A stretch of DNA of 52,446 nt from a virus (Duplodnaviria > Caudoviricetes). The stretch's first letter is position 1. Each line of letters opens with the position of its first letter. The notes under the pieces were generated by a model. The model did no database searches, was not told the DNA's origin, and worked only from the letters and a program-made list of their open reading frames with translations. Shown here piece after piece: positions 7,281 to 15,432 of the stretch. The stretch spans positions 1-52,446 of the IMG/VR virus record IMGVR_UViG_3300036792_000044; one strand, written 5' to 3'. A program made the translations under genes and the position numbers.

Positions 7281-7355
7281 GGTATCTCCCAGGTTTGAGA
7301 GGGCACGGTGTCGCCGGATTGGAGACAAAGCCATACAGCGACACCGTGCCGGTCC

Positions 7356-10534: not shown

Positions 10535-10611
10535 GTTTCGTCTCCAATCTGTTGTGTTTCGGACTGAGTTGTCCAGCGGCTCAGCCTCTTACGAGGCTGG
10601 CCTAGTACTAC

Positions 10612-10824
10612 TCAGTGCGTTCTCTTGTGCGCCTTGAGCCACGCGCCGAAGTCAATCAGCGTGTGCCCCTTGGCTTTCGCGTGTTCCACGTCCCCGGCAT
10701 ATGCGCCGGTTAGTTCCTCGAATGCCTGCTCCTGCCGCCATCGTTCGATACGGTAGGACGCGACGAGGTCGGCGTGAGCCGGTGAGCAAGACCTGTGGCG
10801 CGTACTGCATGGCGTGAAAGTCAT
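10612..10824 (-). CDS. hypothetical protein (ribozyme cassette gene)
   Basis: ATG at 10824 after the shared GATTGGAGAC SD leader. Confidence 0.7.
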   Translation of the reverse strand: MTFTPCSTRHRSCSPAHADLVASYRIERWRQEQAFEELTGAYAGDVEHAKAKGHTLIDFGAWLKAHKRTH

Positions 10825-10846
10825 TGCTGTCTCCAATCGTTGGCTT

Positions 10847-10908
10847 GTCTCTTCAGTGGGGAGGGAACCACCCTAACCCAGACCCGCTGCACCGCAGCGG
10901 GTTTCGAC
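10847..10908 (-). ncRNA. type II hammerhead ribozyme HH-1
   Basis: GUC-GAAA-CCCGCUGC(GGU)GCAGCGGG-UC^-stem I-CUGAAGA-GAC; predicted cut between 10881 and 10880. Confidence 0.9.
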
Positions 10909-10912
10909 TATC

Positions 10913-11251
10913 TCAGTGTGTCGACCATGTCTGGCCTCCGTCGTGTGAGTGCACGCCACGGGCCAGCGCTGCACGGTCAACGGCCTTACCCGCCAACATT
11001 TCTTGGCGTTGCAGGTTCATCTTGGCAGCAGCGCTACCAGACCGTGTGATGGTCCGGTAGATGCACGCGTCGGAGATACCGTCGCGGTCGCTGTCGGACA
11101 GCCCGAGGAACGTAACCGCTCCCTGTGGGCCAACTTTCAGCTTCAACCGGCCGCTTGAAATGAGCTTGTCAATCTGGCTCATTCGCTTGCGTACCTCTTC
11201 CTTGCGCTGCGCGAGCGTTTGGCGAGGCTTCAGCATTGTGTCGCATACCAT
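10913..11251 (-). CDS. hypothetical protein of the AAA-ATPase module
   Basis: 112 aa; MVCDT...VGPQGA...DACIYR...HSHDGG motifs; shared SD leader. Confidence 0.8.
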   Translation of the reverse strand: MVCDTMLKPRQTLAQRKEEVRKRMSQIDKLISSGRLKLKVGPQGAVTFLGLSDSDRDGISDACIYRTITRSGSAAAKMNLQRQEMLAGKAVDRAALARGVHSHDGGQTWSTH

Positions 11252-11272
11252 TTTGTCTCCAATCGTTGTGGC

Positions 11273-11333
11273 AGTCTCTTCAGTGAGGGAATGCCAATCC
11301 CTCAGACCTGGTGCTAGGCACCAGGTTTCGACT
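11273..11333 (-). ncRNA. type II hammerhead ribozyme HH-2
   Basis: AGUC-GAAA-CCUGGUGC(CUA)GCACCAGG-UC^-UGAGGGA(UUGGCAU)UCCCUCA-CUGAAGA-GACU; cut between 11305 and 11304. Confidence 0.93.
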
Positions 11334-12070
11334 TATCCGGCGAGGTCTATGTTCCTGCCGTTCTTCGGTCGCACGTACTCGACACCGCCGCTATTCTCGA
11401 TGTCGAGGAACTGCACGCGTGCCATCTTCAGACGCGTAAGCGCTTGCCGGTCAACCTCTTTCGCAGCAGCTTGACCAACCTGGCTCATCTTGTCTGCCAC
11501 CTGGCGAGACGCCTTAATGGCTGCTTGCAACCTCGGCGTTGCCTCCGGTGACAGCACCTTGCCGACCTGCGTTAGCTTGTTCGCGTTGTCTCGAATCATC
11601 TTGGGGTCCAACGCTTTAACGCCTGCCTGCATACCGTCCACCAACTGGCGTACCTCGCTGGCGATGGCACGAACCGTCTCCACGTCATCCTGAGCTATGC
11701 GACCAGTGATGACGTAGAACGAGATTCGCGTTGTCCGCGCCGTGGCGTTGAACTCGTCGGCAAGCCTGCGGGCCTCTTCGACGGCCTCTCGCAAATCTTC
11801 CTCTTTGTTGTTGGGGCAGATAAGCGAGTTGCTGAAAGCTGTTGCTACGCAATGCTTCAGGATTAGGCCACGAATCTTGGTCCGCTGCTTGATGGCTGCC
11901 TCTTGCTCGTCAACGTCGTTGACTTGCTTGCGAGTGTGAATGTCGGTTACCTCGGTACGGTCCATCCGCACCACGTCTCGGTCGATGTCGTGGTACGACA
12001 CATTGCCCTTAACGCTGGTGAACATCGACACCAACAGGCCAGGGCGCAGGGTGTGAAATTCCATTGTCAT
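11333..12070 (-). CDS. helical hypothetical protein, possibly DUF3150-like partner of the AAA ATPase
   Basis: ATG at 12070 after the shared SD; helical/coiled-coil composition. The family assignment is from recollection only. Confidence 0.7.
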   Translation of the reverse strand: MTMEFHTLRPGLLVSMFTSVKGNVSYHDIDRDVVRMDRTEVTDIHTRKQVNDVDEQEAAIKQRTKIRGLILKHCVATAFSNSLICPNNKEEDLREAVEEARRLADEFNATARTTRISFYVITGRIAQDDVETVRAIASEVRQLVDGMQAGVKALDPKMIRDNANKLTQVGKVLSPEATPRLQAAIKASRQVADKMSQVGQAAAKEVDRQALTRLKMARVQFLDIENSGGVEYVRPKNGRNIDLAG

Positions 12071-12093
12071 GTTTGTCTCCAATCGGTTTGGCT

Positions 12094-12157
12094 TGTCTCT
12101 TCAGTGAGCAGGGAGCCACCCTAACTCAGACCCGCTGCTAGGCAGCGGGTTTCGACA
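12094..12157 (-). ncRNA. type II hammerhead ribozyme HH-3
   Basis: UGUC-GAAA-CCCGCUGC(CUA)GCAGCGGG-UC^-stem I-CUGAAGA-GACA; cut between 12129 and 12128. Confidence 0.92.
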
Positions 12158-13735
12158 TCACACCAGATCAAGCTGGCGTCCGCGCTTGCGCGCCGTGCTG
12201 GTGTCCGCTGCGGCAGCGCTGGTCGCCGGGCGAGCACGCCCGAGCCAGAACTCCCGCAGACGTTCGATCTTCTCGAACGCTGACTTCGCCAGTGGCACAA
12301 CCGTTTTCGCTGCTTCGAGCAGGTCGTCGGTTGTGACCTCACGTGCGCCATCGTTGAACGCCGCGAACATTGCATCCGGTACCAGAGCAGCTAGCTCAGC
12401 GCCGGTAAACAAGTCCGTTGCTTCGCTGATAGCTGCCAGGTTGACATCTGCACTGCTCCGACCGTGCGCCTTCAGCGCGGCCGTCGTAATGCTGGCACGC
12501 TCGCCAGGTGTAGGCAGGTCAACCCACCACACCTCGTCAAAACGTCCCTTGCGCAACAACTCTGGCGGTAGCTTCTCGGCATTGTTGGCGGTCGCGATAA
12601 CGAACGCCTCACCTTGCCGGTCTTGCATCCACGAGAGGATGGCACCGAGCGCATCCGCACTCACGCCACCGTCGGCCGAACCCGAAGTTGCACCCTCAAG
12701 CGCCTTTTCGATTTCGTCCAACCAGACAACGCAGCGGCCGATAGCCTCGATGACGCCTAATGCCTTGCGCAAGTTGCCCTCTGACTCACCAACGTACTTG
12801 GACTTGAGCGCACCCAGGTCCAAGCGCAGCAGCGGAACGCCCCATGCCGTAGCAATTGCCTTGGCAGTCAACGACTTTCCGCAACCGGGAACGCCGACGA
12901 GCAGCGCACCCTTGGGAGCTGGCAGACCGTACTCTCTGGCAGCCGGTGAGTACGCGCTCGCACGCGACACCAACCATGCCTTCAGATTGTCAAGTCCGCC
13001 AACGGCTTCCAGCCCGCCCGGTATCGGGTCGAACCATTCGATGACACCCTCACGCGCAACCACTCGTTTCTTTTCGGCGGCGACGAGCGCGGAGTCAATC
13101 TTGAAAGCCTGCACCAGCGACCGGGCAAAGGTGGCTTGCGCCTCTTCGCCCGAAAGGCCAACCGCCGCATCGATTGCGGAGTCACGAGAACCGTTGGACA
13201 ACTTCTCAATTCGAGGGTCGTCTTGGTACGGCTCCATGGTGTCGTCCAGTAGCTCTGCAATTTCCTCGCGGTCGGGCAGAGGCCACTCGATAACCGTTGT
13301 GTGGTTGGCTAATTCGGCCGGTACATCTTTTGTTGGTGAGATCACGATGATGGCTTGCGCGTCATCTTGGTCCTTGGCGGGAAGCTGGCGAGCCAGATTC
13401 CTCAAGCGCCGCAAGGGCATTGCGCCCTGCGGGCCGGTGAGCCACACGGGTAAGTCCCGCATGATCCACACGCCACGCTCGCCGGACTTCTCCCCGATAG
13501 CTGTGAAAGCTGCGTCGGGGTCACCCTCGGCATTACCGTAGGTGTTCAACGGCTTTCCAGCCATTGTGGTGAATCCTGCTGCGATGTCCCATGTTTGAGC
13601 AAGGTAACCTGCATTGGCAGCCGCTTGGAAGAGGTACTGTTCTACACGTGCCTCTTCGCGAGTCACTACCCACAGCAACGGGTTACGTGCGCGGAGTAGT
13701 GCAGCGATGTCCAGGGTTACATCTTGTGATTTCAT
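12158..13735 (-). CDS. AAA+ ATPase (Ycf46-like architecture)
   Basis: Walker A GVPGCGKS, Walker B VVWLDEIEK, SRH ATAN...PPELLRKGRFDE; degenerate N-terminal AAA domain. The likely start is the ATG at 13735. Confidence 0.9.
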   Translation of the reverse strand: MKSQDVTLDIAALLRARNPLLWVVTREEARVEQYLFQAAANAGYLAQTWDIAAGFTTMAGKPLNTYGNAEGDPDAAFTAIGEKSGERGVWIMRDLPVWLTGPQGAMPLRRLRNLARQLPAKDQDDAQAIIVISPTKDVPAELANHTTVIEWPLPDREEIAELLDDTMEPYQDDPRIEKLSNGSRDSAIDAAVGLSGEEAQATFARSLVQAFKIDSALVAAEKKRVVAREGVIEWFDPIPGGLEAVGGLDNLKAWLVSRASAYSPAAREYGLPAPKGALLVGVPGCGKSLTAKAIATAWGVPLLRLDLGALKSKYVGESEGNLRKALGVIEAIGRCVVWLDEIEKALEGATSGSADGGVSADALGAILSWMQDRQGEAFVIATANNAEKLPPELLRKGRFDEVWWVDLPTPGERASITTAALKAHGRSSADVNLAAISEATDLFTGAELAALVPDAMFAAFNDGAREVTTDDLLEAAKTVVPLAKSAFEKIERLREFWLGRARPATSAAAADTSTARKRGRQLDLV

Positions 13736-13758
13736 TTTGTCTCCAATCGGTTTGGCTT

Positions 13759-13820
13759 GTCTCTTCAGTGGGGAGGGAGCCACCCTCGCCCAGACCCGCT
13801 GGCTCGCAGCGGGTTTCGAC
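13759..13820 (-). ncRNA. type II hammerhead ribozyme HH-4
   Basis: GUC-GAAA-CCCGCUG(CGAGC)CAGCGGG-UC^-stem I-CUGAAGA-GAC; cut between 13793 and 13792. Confidence 0.92.
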
Positions 13821-14239
13821 TAGCAGTCGCAGCACTCGACGGGCGTAATCGGCATGATCGCCGAGCCGATGTCGATGTGTGCTGTCTTGGGGAATTCCTC
13901 GTAAAACGATTCTTTCCCAAGGTATTTCGCGTATGCGGTGCGAACCTTGGCGTCGGGGTTGATATTGAATACCTCGATCAACACGTCTCGGTAGACGTGC
14001 CAGCACACCGCAGCGACCCTACGCTCGCCGCTCCATTTAATGGAGCGTTTCTGCCCTGGCGCTAACTCTTCGACGGGTAATCCCATACCGTAGCCAGTGA
14101 CCTTGAGCTTCACCGTTGCGCGAAAGCGCTTGGGAGAGTAGGTGGTTCCGAAGTCTGCCCGTAGGTTGTCCGCGTACAGTGCGCCAGCTTTCGCGACGGC
14201 CTGCTCGAATTCCCCTGTGGTGATTCCGGTTATCTGCAT
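13820..14239 (-). CDS. hypothetical protein (ribozyme cassette gene)
   Basis: 139 aa; CWH motif and C-terminal ECCDC; shared SD leader. Confidence 0.8.
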   Translation of the reverse strand: MQITGITTGEFEQAVAKAGALYADNLRADFGTTYSPKRFRATVKLKVTGYGMGLPVEELAPGQKRSIKWSGERRVAAVCWHVYRDVLIEVFNINPDAKVRTAYAKYLGKESFYEEFPKTAHIDIGSAIMPITPVECCDC

Positions 14240-14260
14240 GTTGTCTCCAATCGTTGTGGC

Positions 14261-14321
14261 AGTCTCTTCAGTGAGGGAATGCCAATCCCTCAGACCCGCT
14301 GTCTCGCAGCGGGTTTCGACT
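14261..14321 (-). ncRNA. type II hammerhead ribozyme HH-5
   Basis: AGUC-GAAA-CCCGCUG(CGAGA)CAGCGGG-UC^-UGAGGGA(UUGGCAU)UCCCUCA-CUGAAGA-GACU; cut between 14293 and 14292. Confidence 0.93.
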
Positions 14322-14545
14322 TAAAACATGTGAACGGTTACCACGTATTCGTTCTCACCCTTGGCACCGCGCAAGCGCAGCGCACGAATGAGACCGTGGT
14401 CCATACCATCGAATTCGTCATCGTAGACAACAGCGCTCGCGGTGTTGATTGCCCGCGTGCAGAAGTTGTTTGCTTCCATCTCCGACGCGACACTCTTGGT
14501 CTTGGTCTGGTAGGTGGTCTGCGACTGCATCGTGATCTGGTACAT
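14321..14545 (-). CDS. hypothetical protein (first ribozyme cassette gene)
   Basis: 74 aa; shared SD leader. Confidence 0.75.
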   Translation of the reverse strand: MYQITMQSQTTYQTKTKSVASEMEANNFCTRAINTASAVVYDDEFDGMDHGLIRALRLRGAKGENEYVVTVHMF

Positions 14546-14569
14546 ATTGTCTCCAATCTGAAATGGCTT

Positions 14570-14630
14570 ATCTCGTCAGTGATTTGGGAGCCACCCAAAC
14601 CAGACCCGCTGCTAGGCAACGGGTTTCGAT
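14570..14630 (-). ncRNA. type II hammerhead ribozyme HH-6
   Basis: AUC-GAAA-CCCGUUGC(CUA)GCAGCGGG-UC^-UGGUUUGGG(UGGCU)CCCAAAUCA-CUGACGA-GAU; cut between 14603 and 14602; compensatory AUC/GAU stem II. Confidence 0.9.
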
Positions 14631-15027
14631 TGAAGGAGACGGGCTTCGCCTGCGTCTTGATCTTGCACTACCTGTCGTCTATGAAGCGATCGGCGCATTA
14701 CCCTTGCTTGTGGCGCAGGCGCTACCCGGGACTTCCCGGTCTTACACAGTGAGCAACGACAGTTACTCTAGATCATGGAGCATTTTGAAACCTTATGTGG
14801 GACATCACCTTTCGAGACGTGAAAGGCGTCGACCTTACTGCTAGGTCGAACGGCGGGTGCGTGCAGCGACTGTCGAAGTTCTCGCGCATTCGGTTGCGGC
14901 ACTGCGTCTTACGTATGTCCTGGTGCGTTATAGGAATCCCTTGATTGGGGCTGGCTGCCATCCGCTCGTGTTCGTCGGCTCGTGCGCTCGTAACGTCTTA
15001 TCCAGTTGTCCACCGCGCTAGCGGCTT
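14631..15027 (-). ncRNA. putative structured leader RNA of about 400 nt
   Basis: No convincing ORF; several hairpins; lies between the promoter and HH-6. Confidence 0.45.
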
Positions 15028-15033
15028 GCCGCT

Positions 15034-15062
15034 AGCTTATTCACATGTCCCCACATTGTCAA
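15034..15062 (-). promoter_or_regulatory. SigA/sigma70-type promoter of the early operon
   Basis: TTGACA (15062-15057), 17-nt spacer, TAAGCT (15039-15034). Confidence 0.8.
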
Positions 15063-15432
15063 TACACCGTAGGGTCTAGCTAACCCGAAACGGTGACAAA
15101 AATCTTGTGAACGTGCAGGTCAGGACGTTCCTATGAGAATCCCAGCAAAGTCACAATAACCACACTAGCCCCACTGGTGACAGCAAAAAATACCCGTGCA
15201 GACCAGGGCAAATACTGAAATGCCTTGGCCCGCACGGGAATTCAAATTACGGCTTGACCTGGGATTATCTATCGTATCCGTTCACAATCATGCTCGCTAC
15301 GGGTAGCCCGAAGAACAACCACCACCACATGCCGATGCCGAACATCAGTGCGGCGCAACAGAACTGAGATAGATGATCAGCAGAAACATTGCGCCGTAAG
15401 CGATTACGACCGCTAGGATCAGCGGCCACAGG

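Follow-up and report, generated by a model that had tools for sequence, protein, structure and literature searches.

Six type II hammerheads with a candidate loop I/3'-tail pseudoknot precede six consecutive genes of an actinophage-like genome

The array and its genomic setting

The window, by which we mean the whole stretch of DNA that was analysed (52,446 bp), appears to be the genome of an uncultured, actinophage-like soil phage of 52 kb with a host lineage in the Actinomycetota. A search for a near-identical phage record found none. On the minus strand, positions 10841-14630 hold six type II hammerheads (HH-1 to HH-6), each preceding one of six consecutive genes. A preliminary description of this DNA had given the range as 10840-14595; the end at 14595 cuts HH-6. 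Within the span 10612..14545 (minus strand), every one of the six genes is preceded by a hammerhead and by an identical 11-nt ribosome-binding block, GAUUGGAGACA. The genes are as follows.

14321-14545, minus strand: gene for a 74 aa protein, no family
13820-14239, minus strand: gene for a 139 aa protein, no family
12158-13735, minus strand: gene for a 525 aa AAA+ ATPase
11333-12070, minus strand: gene, phrog_11021
10913-11251, minus strand: gene, phrog_11784
10612-10824, minus strand: gene, phrog_7933

The AAA+ ATPase gene of the array shares ~66% DNA identity with the AAA-ATPase gene of Mycobacterium phage Corndog; no hammerhead was found in the 12.7 kb around the Corndog gene. A promoter and terminator scan flagged nothing near the array on the minus strand. 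Among sequencing runs containing the array region, one soil-metagenome DNA run, from which the sequence may itself derive, and no RNA run was listed.

The six elements are set out below with their scores in R1, a covariance model built from the six copies. The letters of loop I and tail are in all cases exactly those given in the preliminary description.

HH-1, 10841..10908, minus strand: type II hammerhead, 95 bits; stem II GUC 10908-10906 / GAC 10849-10847; GAAA 10905-10902; stem III 10902-10882; C17 10881, predicted cleavage 10881/10880; stem I 10880-10857; core CUGAAGA 10856-10850; spacer 1 nt; pseudoknot of loop I UGGUU 10870-10866 with tail AGCCA 10845-10841 (4 Watson-Crick pairs and 1 G-U); Shine-Dalgarno GGAGA 10834-10830; AUG 10824-10822
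HH-2, 11269..11332, minus strand: 78 bits; stem II GUC 11332-11330 / GAC 11276-11274; stem III 11326-11306; C17 11305; stem I 11304-11284 (7 bp, 7-nt loop); core 11283-11277; spacer 0; pseudoknot of loop I UGGCA 11296-11292 with tail UGCCA 11273-11269
HH-3, 12089..12156, minus strand: 96.5 bits; stem II GUC 12156-12154 / GAC 12097-12095; stem III 12150-12130; C17 12129; stem I 12128-12105; core 12104-12098; spacer 1; pseudoknot of loop I UGGCU 12118-12114 with tail AGCCA 12093-12089
HH-4, 13753..13820, minus strand: 94.7 bits; stem II GUC 13820-13818 / GAC 13761-13759; stem III 13814-13794; C17 13793; stem I 13792-13769; core 13768-13762; spacer 1; pseudoknot of loop I UGGCU 13782-13778 with tail AGCCA 13757-13753
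HH-5, 14257..14320, minus strand: 79 bits; stem II GUC 14320-14318 / GAC 14264-14262; stem III 14314-14294; C17 14293; stem I 14292-14272; core 14271-14265; spacer 0; pseudoknot of loop I UGGCA 14284-14280 with tail UGCCA 14261-14257
HH-6, 14564..14630, minus strand: first copy of the array, in the leader, 80.8 bits; stem II AUC 14630-14628 / GAU 14572-14570 (compensatory relative to GUC/GAC); stem III 14624-14604; C17 14603; stem I 14602-14580 (9 bp, uninterrupted); core CUGACGA 14579-14573; spacer 1; pseudoknot of loop I UGGCU 14593-14589 with tail AGCCA 14568-14564

HH-2 and HH-5 are the same letter for letter from stem I through the ribosome-binding site, and two pairs in stem III of HH-2 differ from those of the other copies by compensatory changes. 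The UAA stop codon of the upstream gene abuts stem II of HH-2, and at HH-4 the upstream UAG stop overlaps stem II by 1 nt.

Core, topology and copy number

The pattern GAAAC..GTC..CTGANGA matched at six places, all on the minus strand, with a chance expectation of 0.34, and none of 100 shuffles reached six matches. In the covariance model R1 the window copies scored 78-96.5 bits. Searching the 52,446-bp genome with this model and with filters off revealed no seventh copy; the next-best matches were the palindromic stem III on the opposite strand, followed by a match of 13.2 bits at an E-value of 0.16. The MAFFT alignment used (A1) misaligned stem I of HH-2 and HH-5 and served solely as the model seed. 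A seventh cassette, lost by deletion, was considered upstream of the DUF732 gene and rejected, the alignment being unconvincing.

All six copies have an intact core (CUGANGA, GAAA, the A15.1-U16.1 pair and C17), in agreement with the definition of the hammerhead class (C3 U4 G5 A6 N7 G8 A9, G12 A13 A14, A15.1-U16.1, H17). The order of parts is that of type II in each of them: 5' GUC-GAAA-stem III hairpin-C17-stem I hairpin-CUGANGA-GAC 3'. Loops cap stems I and III, and stem II is open, being built from the 5' and 3' ends.

The whole window gave no match to Rfam at the gathering threshold, and none of the six copies reached the RF02276 cut-off of 37 bits. RF02276 (Hammerhead_II) matched HH-6 alone, at 29.6 bits (E 0.0053), and HH-1 to HH-5 were absent from its listing even at E-values up to 10. 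The RF02276 gathering score is the detection threshold of one model and not a property of the RNA. Among the relatives found with the window-derived model, 37 matches at 5 loci do reach this score.

Helices within the window

Over the six copies, stems I, II and III were 100% paired. Changes on both sides were found in eight stem pairs (one in stem II, two in stem III and five in stem I), and the six-copy stem covariation score was 0.394, compared to 0.173 when shuffled and at most 0.103 with slid partners. Nested minimum-free-energy folds recovered stems I and III in every copy and the canonical stem II in HH-2 and HH-5 only. In HH-1, HH-3, HH-4 and HH-6 the 5' strand of stem II preferred GAC or CGAUUGG of the ribosome-binding block in these folds, and this modelled alternative may conceivably mean misfolding or regulation.

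The helix between loop I and tail has 5 bp in every copy, including one G-U in HH-1; its tail strand starts either directly after the 3-bp stem II or 1 nt further on. All six copies thus belong to the pseudoknot subclass of the Perreault type. The preliminary description had stated that loop and tail change together. Within the window this holds for one pair and one event: the pseudoknot covariation is thin there, consisting of one double change (A-U vs U-A) and one wobble change, and the double change shared by HH-2 and HH-5 counts as one event by descent, not two, since these copies are letter-identical. In HH-2 and HH-5 the helix lies 1 nt nearer to stem II (spacer 0 vs 1) and stem I is correspondingly shorter. 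Because of this 1-nt register shift, a count over fixed columns scores both copies as mismatched; their pseudoknot was therefore read by hand and the six-copy fixed-column count was set aside. In HH-1, HH-3, HH-4 and HH-6, pseudoknot formation would need the whole 5-nt loop to be paired, which is sterically tight; a pair at one end of the helix, or else the pair that closes stem I, may stay open.

Pseudoknot and cassette among relatives

Joint change of loop and tail was borne out among 128 distinct relatives from viral contigs. The mean Watson-Crick run was 4.12 for matched loop and tail vs 2.89 when tails were shuffled among loops, and none of 2000 shuffles reached 4.12, in a test of a kind that kinship among relatives inflates. 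Runs of at least 4 bp were present in 86 of the 128 matched pairs vs 18% of cross-pairs, and runs of at least 5 in 57 (45%) vs 4.8% of mismatched loop/tail combinations. The helices of at least 4 bp comprised 46 distinct sequences, UGGCU/AGCCA being tied with UGCCC/GGGCA as the commonest. By the measure used, 42 of the 128 relatives had no Watson-Crick run of at least 4 bp, among them a subgroup with a short stem I. A fixed-column count found 62.3% of cells paired, compared to 53.4 ± 1.3 after shuffling (0 of 500 shuffles reached the observed value). The covariation score of the pseudoknot was 0.218 vs 0.142 shuffled (0 of 500) and at most 0.102 with slid partners, and all five pairs vary on both sides. 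Kinship inflates these shuffle tests as well. Stems II, III and I were paired to 99.1%, 98.8% and 89.8%, respectively, in 143 distinct relatives.

A geometric rule also links the parts. When the spacer length is subtracted from the number of nucleotides between the helix and the stem I base, 77 of 86 relatives give 7 or 8, a result matched by none of 5000 permutations. The value was 8 in the four distinct window copies counted, and the coordinates of HH-1 and HH-2 likewise give 8.

The placement between genes recurs as well. In 133 of 150 family matches the stop codon of the upstream ORF lay -20 to +8 nt from stem II, with a 1-nt overlap in 59 and abutment in 19 (78/150 together). A Shine-Dalgarno sequence and a start codon followed within 80 nt in 130 of the 150.

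The structural part of the earlier proposal, that these are not decayed relics, is borne out by the cores, the paired stems, the 5-bp pseudoknot, the family covariation and the geometric rule. Judged by sequence, the six elements are unlike decayed relics.

Proposed function and alternative explanations

Very likely, the six are canonical type II hammerheads located between the genes of a single minus-strand operon, with a loop I/tail pseudoknot and with fast cleavage that would separate the genes. The ribozymes are probably active and would cut a polycistronic transcript into single-gene mRNAs. We infer cleavage, its rate and its effects on mRNA processing and stability from the observed sequences, core, helices and covariation; fast cleavage at ~1 mM Mg2+ would follow by homology to assayed type II hammerheads. 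The pseudoknot would keep stems I and II side by side, and this tertiary contact would allow quick cleavage at sub-millimolar Mg2+. If cleaved after C17, the polycistronic RNA would come apart between each gene and the next. The upstream fragment would retain its stop codon and terminate, with a 2',3'-cyclic phosphate, in the hairpin of the GC-rich stem III. In the downstream fragment, stem I and the pseudoknot would enclose the 5'-OH, 6-9 nt before the Shine-Dalgarno sequence.

More tentatively, the succession of stop codon, type II hammerhead, pseudoknot and Shine-Dalgarno sequence might form a complete intercistronic punctuation cassette, for which phages would have selected the type II permutation on account of its structured ends and in which the pseudoknot would have a dual role; we regard this as possible but would not favor it. 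In such a cassette, the upstream mRNA would run ~28 nt beyond its stop codon and end in stem III and the cyclic phosphate. The 5'-OH of the downstream mRNA would be capped by stem I and a persisting pseudoknot, a few nucleotides before the ribosome-binding site. The pseudoknot would serve catalysis and later 5'-end protection or translational insulation. With stop codon and stem II overlapping so tightly, cleavage would also respond to ribosomes translating the upstream gene.

The complementarity of loop and tail could instead be the legacy of an ancestral cassette, with the elements now being repeats that have ceased to cleave, for instance structured spacers or hairpins that stabilise RNA. 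The six copies are indeed paralogous, HH-2 and HH-5 having the same 3' half, the pseudoknot shows a single double change in the window, and all six score below the Rfam gathering threshold. However, such a legacy is unlikely given that all core nucleotides are intact in the six copies and that eight stem pairs, including stem II of HH-6, carry compensatory changes. Moreover, the register shift of HH-2 and HH-5 is offset by a shorter stem I, so that the family geometric rule is kept, and the loop/tail contact covaries in 46 sequence versions among relatives. It is likewise unlikely that the elements are translational switches in which folding of the ribozyme competes with ribosome binding. In such a switch, the stretch before the Shine-Dalgarno sequence would be the main pairing partner of the tail or of the stem II 5' strand (as CCAA/UUGG or UAGUCG/CGAUUG). 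The family as a whole showed no signal of this. The 5' strand and the 35 nt downstream had a mean run of 3.81 vs 3.82 shuffled (308 of 500 shuffles at or above the observed value), and the tail and the 25 nt downstream one of 2.68 vs 2.93 (1000 of 1000). Pairing between tail and downstream region is thus depleted, which suggests avoidance rather than selection. What speaks for a switch comes from the window: the pairing of the 5' strand with the ribosome-binding block in the nested folds of HH-1, HH-3, HH-4 and HH-6, a small CCAA/UUGG hairpin in the folds of HH-1 and HH-3, and an 8-bp helix of HH-6, CUUCAAUC with GAUUGGAG, that encloses the entire ribozyme. Covariation of the ribosome-binding block is unreadable in the window because the block is constant there.

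It would be most surprising if pairs of hammerheads excised single-gene RNAs and then ligated or circularised them, rather than merely separating mRNAs. With a ribozyme on either side of each gene, a released RNA would bear a 5'-OH and a 2',3'-cyclic phosphate, ends on which hammerhead-catalysed or RtcB-type ligation can act. Excision followed by ligation was raised as a possibility by Perreault et al. (2011; PMC3088659), who sought spliced or circular products of their prophage clusters and detected none. Furthermore, the pieces would be joined after cleavage by the 3-bp stem II alone, which would favor dissociation over re-ligation.

Comparison with known hammerheads

In type I and III hammerheads (Schistosoma, sTRSV, viroids), loop-loop contacts align stems I and II for activity at low Mg2+. 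These are non-Watson-Crick contacts of loops and bulges, not a base-paired pseudoknot. The loop I/3'-tail pseudoknot was reported for type II hammerheads by Perreault et al. (2011; PMC3088659), where shortening or mutating it lowered k_obs by 20-fold to >100-fold at 0.5 mM Mg2+ and a compensatory mutant regained activity. The hammerheads described there resemble the window copies in their open stem II, their core and the pairing of loop I with at least 4 of the nucleotides after stem II. The pseudoknot and its role are thus already in print, and knowledge of the pseudoknot itself is unchanged; the observation that started this analysis is correct but ordinary, since loop-to-tail pairing was described and tested in 2011. 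What is added here is a set of six well-formed type II hammerheads missed at the curated Rfam threshold. The RF02276 consensus itself has loop I UGG and tail AGCCA. The window copies differ from it in having CUGAAGA where the consensus has CUGAUGA, in the GUC/GAC stem II with a 0-1 nt spacer, and in scoring below the cut-off.

Perreault et al. (2011; PMC3088659) also reported clusters of hammerheads flanking prophage genes in Agrobacterium tumefaciens, Azorhizobium caulinodans and Clostridium scindens. As in the window, several ribozymes lie along a phage transcript, bordering single genes or short gene blocks, and the role proposed is the same, the processing of long transcripts into single-gene mRNAs. 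In contrast to these clusters, the window has a ribozyme of its own for each of six consecutive genes, together with an identical ribosome-binding block. Three type II hammerheads of Desulfovibrio vulgaris self-cleave in vivo, as reported by cyPhyRNA-seq (Olzog 2021; PMC8782182). They too lie near phage-like genes, at single loci rather than in an array, a likeness drawn from their published description.

Hammerhead arrays are common in viral contigs, and unannotated examples are also found in cultured Streptomyces phages. Hank144 and Paedore carry type II arrays with 8 and 13 R1 matches, respectively, in intergenic gaps of ~90-100 nt between small right-arm genes, and many of these reach the Rfam gathering score. 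The GenBank records of both phages have no feature at the matched places. With such arrays, the contribution of intercistronic ribozymes to phage gene expression becomes a tractable question. Compared to the window copies, the hammerheads of Hank144 and Paedore have mostly GGC/GCC as stem II, AGCC as the tail and a higher GC content.

Six intact type II hammerheads

Read on the minus strand from 14630 to 10841, the window contains six times the same order of elements: GUC-GAAA, an 8-bp GC-rich hairpin, GUC, a second hairpin, CUGANGA, GAC and a short tail. The descriptor GAAAC..GTC..CTGANGA gave 6 matches, against 0.34 expected, and none of 100 shuffled sequences reached six. The element is a hammerhead ribozyme in the type II permutation, with stems I and III capped and stem II open. 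The core positions are intact in all six copies (HH-6, the first in the array, to HH-1, the last), with the cleavage-site nucleotide C17 directly before stem I, and pairing in all three stems is 100%. Two-sided changes occur in 8 stem pairs: stem II of HH-6, for instance, has AUC/GAU in place of GUC/GAC, and HH-2 differs in two stem III pairs. The stem covariation score of the six copies was 0.394, compared to 0.173 upon shuffling and at most 0.103 with slid partners. The window gave no Rfam match at gathering score; at a permissive threshold only HH-6 matched Hammerhead_II (RF02276), with 29.6 bits (cut-off 37) and an E-value of 0.0053. R1, a covariance model derived from these six copies, detected no seventh copy in the window when run with filters off.

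The contig is complete (52,446 bp, 58% G+C), and nearly all of its long ORFs lie on the minus strand. Judged from its sequence, it looks like an uncultured actinobacteriophage. The terminase is nearest to those of Mycobacterium abscessus prophages, at 46% identity; phages of Actinomycetota dominate the 737 records matching it. An AAA+ ATPase gene shares ~66% DNA identity with cluster-O-type mycobacteriophages, and one gene contains a DUF732 domain. No near-identical phage was found among phage records; the window sequence was present in only one sequencing run, of DNA from a soil metagenome.

The loop I/tail pseudoknot

The preliminary description proposed a pseudoknot between five nucleotides of loop I and the tail just 3' of stem II. 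The loop and tail words are letter-exact in all six copies: UGGCA with UGCCA in HH-2 and HH-5, UGGCU with AGCCA in HH-3, HH-4 and HH-6, and UGGUU with AGCCA, containing one G-U pair, in HH-1. Loop and tail were also said to change together. This is seen, but is limited to one pair (A-U versus U-A) between two classes. Since HH-2 and HH-5 do not differ anywhere between the start of stem I and the end of the ribosome-binding site, and the classes differ at a single pair, the window contains a single compensatory event plus one wobble change. The tail helix of HH-2 and HH-5 directly abuts stem II, while a 1-nt spacer is present in the other four copies. HH-2 and HH-5 have an uninterrupted stem I of 7 bp closed by a 7-nt loop; in the others, stem I has 8-9 bp and a 5-nt loop. 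Pairing would have to involve every base of a 5-nt loop, which is tight, and a terminal pair may breathe.

Searching viral contigs with a degenerate subfamily pattern returned at least 118 matching stretches. R1, applied to the window and 80 of these loci, produced 154 matches at E ≤0.01, the best 150 of which form the alignment A2; several of the relatives' contigs carry many hammerhead copies each. RF02276 itself gave 37 matches at gathering score in five of the R1-searched and related loci, indicating that R1 detects bona fide members of this family.

Dropping duplicates and one 3'-clipped match from the 150 left 128 distinct stem I/tail combinations, in which we compared the mid-stem I region with the 9 nt 3' of stem II. 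True partners had a mean longest Watson-Crick run of 4.12, compared to 2.85 over all cross-combinations and 2.89 when the tails were shuffled, with none of 2000 shuffles reaching 4.12. Runs of at least 4 bp were present in 86 of the 128 matched combinations versus 18% of cross-pairs, and runs of at least 5 bp in 57 versus 4.8%. Relatedness inflates such shuffle tests, and a stronger argument than these is how varied the helix sequences are: 46 versions occur among the relatives, e.g. UGACCU/AGGUCA, UAGCCU/AGGCUA, UGGUCU/AGACCA, UUCGCG/CGCGAA and UGGGUU/AACCCA. Counted in fixed columns of A2, 62.3% of cells were paired, compared to 53.4 ± 1.3 upon shuffling (reached in none of 500), with a covariation of 0.218 versus 0.142 (slid partners at most 0.102) and two-sided changes at all five pseudoknot pairs; register shifts blur this count, but the helix is still supported.

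A 4-bp run is missing in 42 of the 128 relatives, many of which form a short-stem I subgroup (in A2, e.g. L005, L033, L052 and L057). This subgroup has a ~5-bp stem I whose loop resembles GUGAUG, together with a 4-bp stem II (GGUC/GACC), a CAAC-rich tail and no Watson-Crick loop/tail helix. Presumably, its tertiary contact is a different one. Hammerheads of the subtype found in the window, with an NNGCCA tail, were also seen in genomes and MAGs labelled Pirellulaceae, Bacillota, Chitinivibrionales, Haliea and Kineobactrum (L119-L124). The distribution of this window subtype is thus broad across phyla, presumably via prophages.

In each of the 86 relatives whose run reaches 4 bp, we counted the nucleotides between the loop-side helix end and the stem I base and subtracted the length of the spacer that follows stem II. 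This value was 7 or 8 in 77 of the 86, a count reached in none of 5000 spacer permutations. It was 8 in all four distinct window copies counted and, from coordinates, also in HH-1 (left out for its G-U pair) and HH-2 (the duplicate of HH-5). Given this constancy, the register shift of HH-2 and HH-5 is a coordinated change, which again points to selection acting on the pseudoknot contact. Passages of Perreault 2011 (PMC3088659) state that the pseudoknot constrains stem lengths, with no simple rule; comparable stem-length statistics may already be contained in Figure S4 of that paper. Homology and covariation support the initial interpretation of the six elements as probably active ribozymes rather than relics.

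Gene context and proposed processing

The window hammerheads start 0-5 nt 3' of the preceding gene's stop (HH-4 overlaps the stop by 1 nt) and end 6-9 nt 5' of the Shine-Dalgarno sequence, which in every case lies inside the same 11-nt block, GAUUGGAGACA, with AUG after it. The family layout is likewise compact. In 133 of the 150 matches the upstream ORF stop lies between -20 and +8 nt relative to stem II, with a one-base overlap in 59 and abutting in 19, and a Shine-Dalgarno sequence and start codon follow within 80 nt in 130 (median start 19 nt past the tail helix). With a hammerhead between the stop and the Shine-Dalgarno sequence of adjoining genes, cleavage would separate every gene pair. 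The upstream RNA is predicted to retain its stop codon and to have stem III as its 3' end, and the downstream RNA would start with a 5'-OH within stem I. We infer that such ends may stabilise or insulate the mRNAs. Bacterial mRNAs are protected by 5'-terminal hairpins; nevertheless, in the case of glmS, 5'-OH ends are substrates of RNase J1. RiboJ is a hammerhead-derived insulator of synthetic biology.

The GAUUGGAGACA block has 9 occurrences in the window at ≤1 mismatch, versus 0.78 expected, with blocks of this type located as follows:
At the hammerheads, minus strand: six blocks
10539-10549, minus strand: one block, 5' of the DUF732 gene
7317-7327, plus strand: one block
The uniformity of the block suggests that the whole cassette was copied or underwent gene conversion.

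The spacer between the gene following HH-1 and the DUF732 gene contains no hammerhead:
10560-10619, minus strand: long stable hairpin
This hairpin (-33.1 kcal/mol, z -4.04; none of 200 shuffles folded as well) has no U-run 3' and is followed by GUCCGAAAC and then the one-change ribosome-binding block GAUUGGAGACG. The hairpin could act in processing or stability, or be what is left of a seventh cassette; alignment of the spacer to HH-2/HH-5 was unconvincing.

Upstream of HH-6, inspection by eye showed a terminator-like CCCGUGC...GCACGGG stem followed by UAUUUUUUG and, ~120 nt past it, promoter-like TTGACA and TAAGCT separated by 17 nt:
15184-15238, minus strand: candidate terminator, by eye
15034-15062, minus strand: candidate promoter, by eye
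A consensus promoter/terminator scan flagged neither site. With the candidate promoter, HH-6 would sit in a ~400-nt leader.

Alternative pairings

Alternative pairings (ALTERNATIVES) were tested by nested folds of the six copies and by family-wide pairing against shuffled controls. All six nested folds contained stems I and III, but the canonical stem II formed in HH-2 and HH-5 alone; in HH-1, HH-3, HH-4 and HH-6, the 5' strand of stem II was paired with the ribosome-binding block. Across the family, pairing of this strand with downstream sequence was not above shuffled controls, and tail/downstream pairing was below them (depleted). A general switch model was rejected because neither pairing exceeds the controls; leader-borne HH-6 may be an exception. 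The 5' flank of HH-6, GUCUCC-UUC-AAUC, has its complement, GAUU-GGAGAC, in the ribosome-binding block of the same copy, and in HH-6 only, the nested fold has an 8-bp helix that encloses the whole ribozyme and covers part of the Shine-Dalgarno sequence:
14628-14642 and 14548-14558, minus strand: helix enclosing HH-6, nested fold
In this modelled fold, the helix may gate cleavage or translation.

Relation to known hammerheads

Type II hammerhead arrays are also present in two cultured Streptomyces phages, Hank144 (L126, NC_054661.1) and Paedore (L127, NC_054671.1). They lie in right-arm intergenic gaps of ~90-100 nt, with 8 and 13 R1 matches, respectively, many at Rfam gathering score. The GenBank records of both phages have no feature at the matched places, and we found no report of hammerheads in mycobacteriophages, Streptomyces phages or actinobacteriophages in titles and abstracts of the open literature.

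According to passages of Perreault 2011 (PMC3088659), the pseudoknot is present in a majority of type II members, its truncation or mutation cuts k_obs by 20-fold to >100-fold at 0.5 mM Mg2+, and a compensatory mutant regained activity; multiple hammerheads flank single prophage genes, and processing of a long phage transcript was proposed. Passages of Olzog 2021 (PMC8782182) describe in vivo cleavage by type II hammerheads in Desulfovibrio vulgaris. In view of these results, the finding in the window is a correct rediscovery: the pseudoknot is an already-known contact, and the six elements themselves are new.
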